The position numbers and the translations under genes are program-made. The notes below the pieces were generated by a model. That model was not told where the DNA came from, searched no databases, and saw only the letters and a list, made by a program, of their open reading frames with translations. From an uncultured Bacilli bacterium (GTDB taxonomy: Bacteria; Bacillota_I; Bacilli_A; RF39; UBA660), in assembly GCA_963931545.1 (NCBI GenBank), contig OZ007025.1, positions 137,145 through 201,144 on the forward strand: DNA of 64,000 bases, read 5' to 3'. Shown here piece after piece: positions 11,307 to 11,697 of the stretch; within the stretch, counting starts at the first letter, position 1; every line of letters starts with the position of its first letter.

Positions 11307-11342
11307 TTTGCTTTAAAGTTAAAAATATGATATTATGTATAT

Positions 11343-11453
11343 AGATGAGAGTTTTCTCATATAATAAAAAGGAATATTCAATTCGCGATGTTGAATGTAC
11401 CAATTATTTGTGTACACCTAAATCAAGCGTTTGCTTAAGTTAGGTGCTTTTTT
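11343..11453 (+). ncRNA. Putative small RNA (candidate type I antitoxin) ending at an intrinsic terminator
   Basis: A promoter-like TTGCTT (11308-11313), 17-nt spacer and TATTAT (11331-11336) sits right after the mnmE stop. A transcript from it would run about 110 nt to the hairpin and T-run at 11415-11453. It would overlap the 3' end of the convergent small ORF on the opposite strand. Confidence 0.3.
11415..11453. terminator. Rho-independent terminator shared by convergent transcripts
   Basis: CACCTAA...TTAGGTG forms a stem extendable to about 12 of 14 bp, followed by CTTTTTTC. Confidence 0.6.
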
Positions 11454-11531
11454 CTATTTAAATAATATTATGAATATTAAGATAAATAGAAGGGATATTA
11501 TGGCATAGAGAGCTTTTTCTCTTTGAGTCAT
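11454..11531 (-). CDS. 25-aa hydrophobic peptide (candidate type I toxin)
   Basis: The minus-strand ORF encodes MTQREKALYAIISLLFILIFIILFK. It has a GGAGGTGA ribosome-binding site 6 nt upstream that is partly sequestered in the hairpin CCAATTC-TTTTGTGA-GAATTGG. The ORF ends directly at the terminator. Confidence 0.4.
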   Translation of the reverse strand: MTQREKALYAIISLLFILIFIILFK

Positions 11532-11596
11532 AAACATCACCTCCAATTCTTTTGTGAGAATTGGCACACCCAACTTACTGAATATTCCTTAATATG

Positions 11597-11625
11597 ATTA
11601 TAACAAATGGTTATATATTAATCAA
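11597..11625 (-). promoter_or_regulatory. Consensus promoter driving the small hydrophobic peptide ORF
   Basis: The minus strand reads TTGATT (11625-11620), a 17-nt spacer and TATAAT (11602-11597), about 55 nt upstream of the peptide ATG. Confidence 0.45.
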
Positions 11626-11697
11626 TATAAAAATATTTAGTTTAAATATAAAAATGTTATATTCATGTTTTTAAAGTATGTATTTAGGAGGTTTATT

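Follow-up and report, generated by a model that had tools for sequence, protein, structure and literature searches.

What is encoded directly after mnmE on the chromosome of an uncultured, low-GC Bacilli bacterium, where signals for short transcripts appear on both strands? The window analysed here is a stretch of 64,000 nucleotides (nt) from contig OZ007025.1 (assembly GCA_963931545.1, positions 137,145 to 201,144), which starts near dnaA/oriC of an uncultured low-GC Bacillota lineage; all positions below are those of the window. An earlier note, made from the letters of this DNA, had proposed a toxin-antitoxin pair of type I, that is, a gene for a hydrophobic peptide convergent with a small RNA (sRNA). 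We consider it quite likely that the roughly 320-base-pair (bp) cassette directly 3' of mnmE is a chromosomal type I toxin-antitoxin module, belonging to a hitherto unannotated family. Comparison across relatives strongly supports this reading, with toxicity and expression standing as predictions. Everything that such a layout predicts computationally was found, from the short hydrophobic open reading frame (ORF), the antisense sRNA and the closed fold of the peptide messenger RNA (mRNA) to dispersal in multiple copies and a graded series of decayed copies, and the proposed layout has in this sense held up.

The features of the module are listed here, with SD denoting the Shine-Dalgarno sequence, UTR the untranslated region and P1 the helix formed between the two ends of the peptide mRNA.

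11625-11597, minus strand: promoter of the peptide mRNA, with -35 TTGATT (11625-11620), a 17-nt spacer and TGT-TATAAT (11605-11597)
11363-11590, minus strand: predicted toxin mRNA of about 225 nt, its 5' end placed at A11590 or A11589
11556-11590, minus strand: 5' strand of P1, mRNA nt 1-35, reading AAGGAAUAUUCAGU, then GUUGGGUG, then UGCCAAUU
11564-11557 with 11550-11543, minus strand: local anti-SD hairpin of 8 bp, CCAAUUCU with AGAAUUGG, read from the sequence
11544-11540, minus strand: SD GGAGG, 8 nt upstream of the ATG at 11531
11531-11457, minus strand: 25-codon ORF encoding MTQREKALYAIISLLFILIFIILFK, followed by the stop codon TAG at 11456-11454 (ORF list, tblastn)
11415-11446, minus strand: post-stop hairpin (CACCUAAC...UUAGGUG), which mirrors the sRNA terminator and lies in the 3' UTR of the toxin mRNA
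11369-11405, minus strand: 3' strand of P1, mRNA nt 186-222, followed by a U-run (from covariation and fold)
11370-11361, minus strand: T-run at which the toxin mRNA probably ends, directly after the 3' strand of P1
11308-11336, plus strand: sRNA promoter, with -35 TTGCTT (11308-11313), a 17-nt spacer and TGA-TATTAT (11328-11336)
11343-11453, plus strand: predicted antitoxin sRNA of about 110 nt, its start placed 7-8 nt after the -10 and its end at T6
11345-11360, plus strand: 5' hairpin of the sRNA
11371-11401, plus strand: hairpin HP2 of the sRNA, on DNA shared with the 3' strand of P1
11415-11446, plus strand: terminator hairpin of the sRNA, followed by T6 at 11448-11453

The peptide gene is largely as first described: the promoter, the 25-codon frame for a peptide with a single transmembrane-like segment, and a ribosome-binding site (RBS) overlapped by a leader hairpin (CCAATTCT/AGAATTGG, 11564-11543, taking in the first two G of the SD) are all present, while the leader, estimated at about 50 nt, measures about 59 nt. 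MTQREKALYAIISLLFILIFIILFK consists of a short charged N-terminus followed by one hydrophobic stretch of about 20 residues that is predicted to span the membrane, so that the minus strand holds what a type I toxin gene calls for, a hydrophobic ORF of fewer than 60 residues with its own SD and promoter. This promoter is the best promoter-like site that a scan of the region returned (10/12 hexamer positions plus an extended -10, TG), and TTGnnn-17-TATAAT occurs at the equivalent place in most intact family members among the matches listed.

Could all of this be chance? If the region were only the 3' UTR and terminator of mnmE, the hexamers and the short ORF would be accidents of AT-rich DNA, and single-sequence statistics do allow for such accidents: 14 promoter-like sites were found where shuffles of this 28% GC DNA gave 12.8, and ORFs of 20-40 residues number in the dozens and are thus common by chance. 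Moreover, mnmE (stop codon 11304-11306) has no terminator of its own and the sRNA terminator is the first one downstream, so its transcript probably also ends at 11453. The case therefore rests on conservation in relatives, and there the whole cassette recurs at dozens of loci that lack mnmE, with covariation on both strands; this refutes the suggestion, entertained in the earlier note, that the region is a mere mnmE 3' UTR, and we give that explanation practically no weight. A consequence of termination at the sRNA terminator is that read-through mnmE transcripts would hold the whole antitoxin sequence in their 3' UTR.

How widespread is the cassette? When metagenome contigs were scanned with the exact pattern of the post-stop hairpin, at least 120 loci matched. 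Homology over the entire module was seen in at least about 70 distinct sequences, on contigs of 23-32% GC. Just one of the listed family loci has mnmE as a neighbour; other modules lie between unrelated housekeeping genes, including pyk (pyruvate kinase), uvrC, smc/rnc, topA and rpsI, and others again beside transfer RNA (tRNA) genes, within a few hundred nt of them at L157:21-371, L203:661-734, L144:650-722 and L145:1-128. The module of L157 adjoins a T-box leader. Within the 64-kb window itself, neither blastn, tblastn nor nhmmer with the family profile found a further copy.

The ORF behaves as coding sequence. Across the distinct ORFs of intact modules, entropy at codon positions 1, 2 and 3 amounts to 7.6, 4.0 and 13.9 bits in the group with 25-residue peptides and to 15.9, 6.0 and 20.9 bits in the group with 27-residue peptides, which places variability at the third position above that at the first and far above that at the second. 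An ORF with this signature is kept in 47 relatives, and peptide length differs between the groups by whole codons. Residues K3, K4, L7, I8, L11, I15, L17, L18 and L22 are invariant, and D5 is found in 30 of 31. The peptides of L008 and L009 are identical to that of the window, the DNA changes in L009 being all at third positions; that of L012 differs from the window's by Q3K, and that of L018, MTKRENSLFVIIILLFILVFLILFK, is 68% identical to it. The majority of listed modules encode a 27-residue peptide with the consensus MNKKDFLILSLVIIIFLLLFLLFIVLI. Pfam and NCBIfam gave no significant match for five family peptides (no hit at E <= 10 to Fst-family models), the sole line naming a type I toxin being HokA at E 0.12, where the 12 bits stay below the cut-off of 89. 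Read-through translations of 44 and 46 residues, searched against 5.8 billion proteins, recovered the peptides inside just 2 and 8 unnamed metagenomic ORFs (10 in total).

The strongest structural signal is the helix P1. RNAalifold, run on 47 intact modules, predicted pairing between the 5' and 3' ends of the toxin mRNA, and the pairs were counted in alignment A2. Its sub-helix P1a (12 bp; columns 5-16/249-260, in the window 11588-11577 with 11382-11371) is 98.6% paired, and 7 of its 12 pairs have changed on both sides, for example U-A, U.G and C-G in 20, 16 and 11 sequences at one pair and C-G, U.G and U-A in 29, 11 and 7 at another; P1b (8 bp; columns 19-26/231-238) is 97% paired. Overall, 98% of P1 cells are paired, as against 42-51% when the partners are slid, and double-change cells number 52 as against 12.8 in shuffles, with the observed values reached in 0 of 500 shuffles. 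Mismatches read in the toxin sense fall heavily on one side: 507 Watson-Crick, 49 G.U and 8 A.C in P1a, and 309 Watson-Crick, 56 G.U, 5 A.C and 6 other non-canonical in P1b. This excess of G.U over A.C means that selection has acted on the helix in the peptide-sense RNA, rather than on a repeat at the DNA level or on the RNA of the other strand. By the covariation, the toxin mRNA must then span about 11590 to at least 11369, past the hairpin first called its terminator. The sRNA and the 3' end of the peptide mRNA do overlap as proposed, and by the same covariation the overlap is about 85-90 nt, more than the terminator alone, and would take in almost all of the sRNA.

In the window the predicted mRNA (11590-11363) has a minimum free energy (MFE) of -73.6 kcal/mol, as against -36.4 +/- 4.0 for shuffles (z = -9.3), and 11590-11556 pairs with 11405-11369 in both the MFE and the centroid structure, each of which is also predicted to pair the SD and the AUG. 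Among the 47 aligned relatives every mRNA has a predicted fold of between -60 and -84 kcal/mol, with a family-wide mean probability of 0.25 that the SD is unpaired. As in type I systems, then, the toxin mRNA would by its predicted fold hinder the initiation of its own translation.

Might P1 instead be the terminal inverted repeat of a mobile element, a miniature inverted-repeat transposable element (MITE) whose ends mimic a 5'-3' RNA helix and whose ORF and promoters are incidental? The family is indeed dispersed and multi-copy: its unit measures about 330 bp, an imperfect inverted repeat of some 35 nt runs close to the two ends, and some copies stand beside tRNA genes. However, the repeat covaries as an RNA does, with a strand bias (G.U to A.C of 49:8 and 56:5) that would not be expected at the DNA level, the ORF bears its codon-position signature, and conservation reaches beyond the repeat to the two promoters and ends there. 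No transposase is linked to the modules, and the mobile-element collections contain nothing comparable: blastn of the module against phages and plasmids gave one 36-nt chance match and nothing else, and a scan of viral contigs for the hairpin pattern gave 0 matches. We regard a MITE as very improbable.

The plus strand carries an independent signature. Its promoter begins 2 nt past the mnmE stop codon and does have the proposed hexamers and 17-nt spacer, together with a TGn extension, yet "near-consensus", as it had been called, is too strong for hexamers that match at 8 of 12 positions. Conservation speaks more clearly: in alignment A3 (56 members) the T, A and final T of TGnTAnnnT are invariant, with TG and T at 90% or more at the aligned position, and a TGn -10 with a TTGnnn -35 at a spacing of 16-18 nt, often a perfect TTGACA, is found in 64 of the 69 listed members. 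Both promoters are thus kept in the mnmE-locus orthologues and across the family alignments, and the RNA of about 110 nt that had been proposed to end at the hairpin is matched by a predicted transcript at 11343-11453 with conserved promoter and terminator. As type I systems require, this antisense gene would have a promoter and terminator of its own and, by its position, a product perfectly complementary to the toxin mRNA.

The sRNA is predicted to fold into three hairpins (-28 kcal/mol, z = -3.0). HP2 is 96-100% canonical when read in the sRNA sense across the 56 aligned members, and at positions where the opposite strand would read C.A it has U.G pairs, in as many as 55 of the 56 sequences; the same DNA counted in the toxin sense gives 55 A.C against 8 G.U. 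The 5' hairpin covaries by eye (ATGAGA/TCTCAT, ATGAAG/CTTCAT, ATGCAG/CTGCAT), and RNAalifold did not recover it because of alignment gaps. Such opposite, strand-specific signatures on the two strands are hard to explain unless both RNAs are made and matter, and at the level of sequence the comparisons show two transcription units, a coding ORF, P1 and a structured sRNA.

Where does the toxin transcript end? The earlier note had both RNAs stopping at one bidirectional terminator, a view we abandon, since the T-run follows the hairpin on the plus strand only and the toxin-sense RNA runs about 85-90 nt beyond it. The local hairpin before the distal T-run was considered as the toxin terminator and rejected, its mismatch counts indicating selection on the sRNA strand; P1, lying directly before the U-run, might itself act as the transcription terminator. 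A simple terminator scan of 10800-12200 reported no site, because its rules exclude interrupted stems and long loops. The closing pair of the post-stop hairpin covaries (CG 28, UA 8, GC 6), its 3' arm resembles the leader segment GUUGGGUG, and divergent copies found by the profile search have another stem, GACACUC/GAGUGUC, with the leader altered to match.

The copies also differ in what they have lost. Toxin promoter, leader and SD are gone from 17 of the 69 listed distinct sequences (about 11 loci), most of which retain the sRNA promoter. On the toxin side other copies are damaged in the ORF, by a nonsense codon in L133 and a frameshift in L146, or in the SD, which is deleted in L010 and bears point mutations in L168, L132, L205 and L180. 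A weakened sRNA promoter beside an intact ORF was found, among those listed, in L168 and L132 only, both of them SD-mutated, and no copy among the 69 combines an intact SD with a lost sRNA promoter. The profile search further found tandem arrays and several contigs with two copies. Three intact copies stand head to tail with a period of about 340 nt at L116:3161-4074, and four copies at L194:7367-10217 comprise one of window type and one of majority type, each followed by a partial copy without the toxin part. To judge from these sequences, the asymmetry of decay, the patchy presence, the varied insertion contexts and the tandem arrays are as a toxin/antitoxin pair predicts.

The same search added divergent copies beyond the reach of the pattern, two of them with 30-residue peptides ending in KK: L172:10358-10600 and L112:338-584 encode the different sequences MKTKTFIIKVLKLIVIILLLSTLLVLAIKK and MKKREYNIKLLRYISLILLLLTLLVLVIKK, and L156:1094-1347 encodes a 27-residue, majority-like peptide, MHKKDFLISSLIIIIFLLIALLFTLVK. 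All three share the RNA scaffold, namely P1, a perfect CCUCC/GGAGG anti-SD hairpin and the sRNA side, and differ from the main set in the sequence of the post-stop hairpin.

The neighbours of these loci bear on another possibility, that the peptide is a secreted signalling pro-peptide under antisense control, comparable to SHP/Rgg or PrgQ/Anti-Q, with its hydrophobic C-terminus as the mature pheromone. An M-x-K-K start followed by a hydrophobic tail does resemble the precursors of short hydrophobic pheromones, prgQ is controlled by a convergent antisense RNA, and one locus (L194) has an HTH_3 neighbour. Against this, a scan of ten neighbours, mostly unrelated housekeeping genes, found no linked Rgg, PrgX or other RRNPP-type receptor, and closure of the mRNA by a P1-type helix and the pattern of decay are foreign to such systems. 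Given that no receptor is linked, we think it highly unlikely that the peptide is a pheromone.

How, then, would a type I module of this design work? We propose that transcription of the minus strand gives an mRNA of about 225 nt whose product, a membrane peptide of 25 residues with a single pass, is the presumed toxin. In this mRNA, P1 (the first roughly 35 nt with the last roughly 35 nt) and the local anti-SD element would bury the RBS and start codon, leaving the full-length mRNA poorly translatable. The plus strand would give rise, from its own extended -10 promoter, to an sRNA of about 110 nt that ends at the terminator abutting the toxin stop codon and would match the 3' UTR of the toxin mRNA with perfect complementarity, the 3' strand of P1 included. 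Binding of the two RNAs would create a long duplex that, by analogy with bsrG/SR4, may be a substrate for RNase III, and would displace the leader from P1, whereupon the leader could refold into the 8-bp hairpin over the SD. The outcome would be mRNA decay combined with a tightening of translational control, the latter at least in the window-type subfamily. On this proposal the peptide would be toxic, the RNAs would pair in vivo, RNase III would cleave the duplex and the SD switch would operate.

In silico, the switch can be mimicked by masking the 3' UTR as though the sRNA were bound. In the window the 8-bp CCAAUUCU/AGAAUUGG hairpin then forms and the unpaired probability of the SD falls from 0.19 to 0.03, and across the window-type subfamily SD accessibility falls from 0.16-0.32 to 0.00-0.03. 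A family-wide rise in SD sequestration upon sRNA binding was a candidate that we dropped, as the simulations gave it in the window-type subfamily only. Alternative anti-SD sequences occur in L018 (CCUUCA:UGGAGG) and in L112 and L156 (CCUCC:GGAGG).

The leader offers a further twist. In the window its segment GUUGGGUG could pair with any of three partners: the 3' strand of P1, the post-stop hairpin by its 5' arm, and, because that hairpin is near-palindromic, the 5' arm of the sRNA terminator. This complementarity to three partners is found in every member, divergent sequences included. The antitoxin could thus contact both the 3' UTR and the leader beside the SD. That the family uses a three-way RNA switch undescribed for type I systems, or is a very distant relative of bsrG/SR4, or both, strikes us as possible but doubtful.

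Which known system does the module most resemble? In Gram-positive bacteria, type I modules commonly place an antisense RNA on the 3' side of a short mRNA for a hydrophobic peptide (PMC8594479), and the earlier note had likened the layout here to Fst, TxpA and BsrG. What survives of that comparison is an architecture of the BsrG type; the bidirectional terminator and 5' interaction of Fst do not carry over, and the peptide has no homology to Fst, TxpA or BsrG. In bsrG mRNA, which has been probed experimentally, P1 is formed by nt 1-35 and nt 232-262, and a helix of 4 bp contains the SD; SR4, which overlaps the 3' end, triggers RNase III-dependent decay of the mRNA, and its binding frees nt 1-33, whereupon the SD helix grows from 4 to 8 bp (PMC3834814). 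The module studied here has the same convergent genes with an antitoxin RNA complementary to the toxin 3' region, the same closure of the molecule by a long P1, in which some 35 nt at the 5' end pair with the 3' region, a leader likewise of 59 nt, and an SD in a short helix that could become an 8-bp helix once the leader is released. The three hallmarks of the bsrG/SR4 design, namely P1, the SD in a short helix and a 3'-overlapping antitoxin, are thus all predicted here. By contrast, the peptides are unrelated (25-27 residues here, 38 in BsrG), the U-run comes right after P1 where in bsrG a stem-loop of its own, SL4, serves as terminator, the sRNA measures about 110 nt rather than 180 nt, and the modules occupy chromosomal intergenic sites of uncultured low-GC Bacilli rather than a prophage.

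Other systems are further removed. The pairs txpA/RatA, yonT/SR6, bsrE/SR5 and SprG/SprF also have an antisense RNA on the 3' side, but in most of those families it reaches into the ORF as well, whereas here it ends at the stop codon (PMC8594479). For txpA/RatA-like and other 3'-overlapping Gram-positive families, Pfam and NCBIfam gave no peptide match. With fst/RNAII (the par locus of pAD1), as it is generally described, the module shares convergent transcription, a toxin that is small and hydrophobic, and restraint of translation by structure at the 5' end, and complementarity of the leader to the 5' arm of the sRNA terminator could permit a second contact at the 5' end. However, the two RNAs do not share a bidirectional terminator, the T-run being on one strand and the toxin mRNA continuing past the hairpin, and the charge of the peptide is N-terminal where that of Fst is C-terminal; membership in Fst/RNAII was rejected for want of a peptide match to the Fst family and of a shared bidirectional terminator. 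In hok/Sok and aapA1/IsoA1 the target of the antisense RNA is the 5' region or the site of translation initiation, and the mRNA must be trimmed at its 3' end to become active. Those systems are alike in that the full-length toxin mRNA is closed by 5'/3' pairing and predicted to be translationally inert, and differ in that here the antisense RNA lies over the 3' UTR, together with the closing helix's 3' strand. No family in Pfam, NCBIfam or Rfam fits the module.

A number of observations weigh against our interpretation. In the majority subfamily, masking the 3' UTR does not change SD accessibility consistently (mean 0.25 to 0.21). The 3' end assigned to the toxin mRNA is tentative, and the hairpin that precedes the T-run pairs imperfectly when read in the toxin sense (the 55 A.C cells of HP2). 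That the post-stop hairpin has an unvarying stem throughout the main set is an ascertainment effect, as the stem was the search key. Most family peptides end in hydrophobic residues, without the C-terminal Lys/Arg tail common in type I toxins. All relatives are metagenome sequences or metagenome-assembled genomes (MAGs), and transcripts, translation and toxicity are predictions from sequence. Finally, although the Rfam model of BsrG (RF01412) aligns end to end with 11590-11342, by way of P1 and the SD helix, it does so at 23.2 bits against a cut-off of 55, where authentic bsrG scores 210.4 bits under the same model, and the match was not reproduced in 12 other family loci or in L105. The nhmmer family profile reached at best E 0.097 (0.8 bits) against the bsrG region of SPbeta, and BLASTP of family peptides against BsrG gave no alignment. 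Membership in bsrG/SR4 is therefore not supported, the score lying below the cut-off and no homology of RNA or peptide being found, and we propose that the module works like bsrG/SR4 without being a member, as a new family of the known type I class.

The peptide could also be a small membrane protein that is not toxic, such as a modulator of a transporter or membrane complex, whose structured mRNA is under cis-antisense control with no addiction involved. A coding signal and an antisense layout fall short of proving toxicity, the missing charged tail fits this as well, and the copy in the window sits among housekeeping genes. Such a protein would, however, sit uneasily with a module that turns up at many loci with nothing in common, that forms tandem arrays and that has several paralogues on one contig, with presence and absence that differ between close species at a single mnmE locus, with the repeated loss of expression signals while the antisense gene is retained, with an SD and AUG that are heavily buried in the predicted fold, and with the lack of a conserved neighbouring gene able to act as its partner. 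A selfish or toxic module fits this dispersal, patchiness, decay and burial of the SD and AUG better than a fixed housekeeping partner does, and we judge a non-toxic protein to be unlikely.

The mnmE locus shows the patchiness of the module at close range. Contigs with an identical mnmE are all metagenomic, and the closest genomes are MAGs labelled "uncultured Bacilli" or Candidatus Coprosoma, among them a chromosome of 1.52 Mb. The module is unaltered in contigs related at strain level, and the cassette stands directly after mnmE in five other MAG species at 99%, 84%, 83%, 74% and 71% identity, while it is missing at mnmE in several equally close species. Conserved among the orthologues at this locus are the two promoters, the leader with the SD region, the frame of 25 codons, the hairpins and the T-runs, with L010 having lost 16 nt, SD included. 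In a MAG labelled "uncultured Tenericutes" a degenerate copy is found some 3 kb upstream of mnmE (L025:143-377), with leader, anti-SD element and hairpins still recognisable and an ORF that no longer codes for a hydrophobic peptide.

Between the module and mnmG in the window lie ORFs of 76 residues (11698-11928) and 276 residues (11965-12795), for which Pfam, NCBIfam and PADLOC gave no match. In L003, mnmE and the module are identical through 11659, after which come 17 unrelated nt before the sequence resumes at 12819 (94.5% identity); the ORF pair is thus a strain-level indel, and L003 lacks this 1.16 kb. As L003 keeps the module without the two ORFs, the module is independent of those genes. 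At L003:7956-9610, mnmG is called as two pieces (48 and 497 residues) instead of 616 residues, which could reflect a frameshift, a rearrangement or an assembly error at the border of the indel. Elsewhere in the window, an L31-Firmicutes ribosomal protein leader at 43206-43236 (plus strand, 34.6 bits) is the sole Rfam match above its gathering score.

What would a further type I family add? The catalogue T1TAdb lists 24 type I families from 218 species (PMC8594479). The family described here would contribute at least about 70 distinct loci, some in tandem arrays, with presumed toxins of 25-27 residues that would be among the smallest known, and its hosts are uncultured, small-genome, low-GC Bacilli of gut and rumen in which no such system has been annotated. 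Its natural variation amounts to a ready-made mutational analysis, with compensatory changes in P1, alternative anti-SDs and toxin-dead copies that keep the antitoxin. The module deserves annotation in these MAGs, and may serve as a source of compact, orthogonal parts for RNA control. More broadly, the closing-helix logic of bsrG/SR4 appears to recur here without detectable sequence homology; were the family a distant relative of bsrG/SR4 after all, the design would extend from a prophage of Bacillus to the reduced genomes of gut Bacilli.

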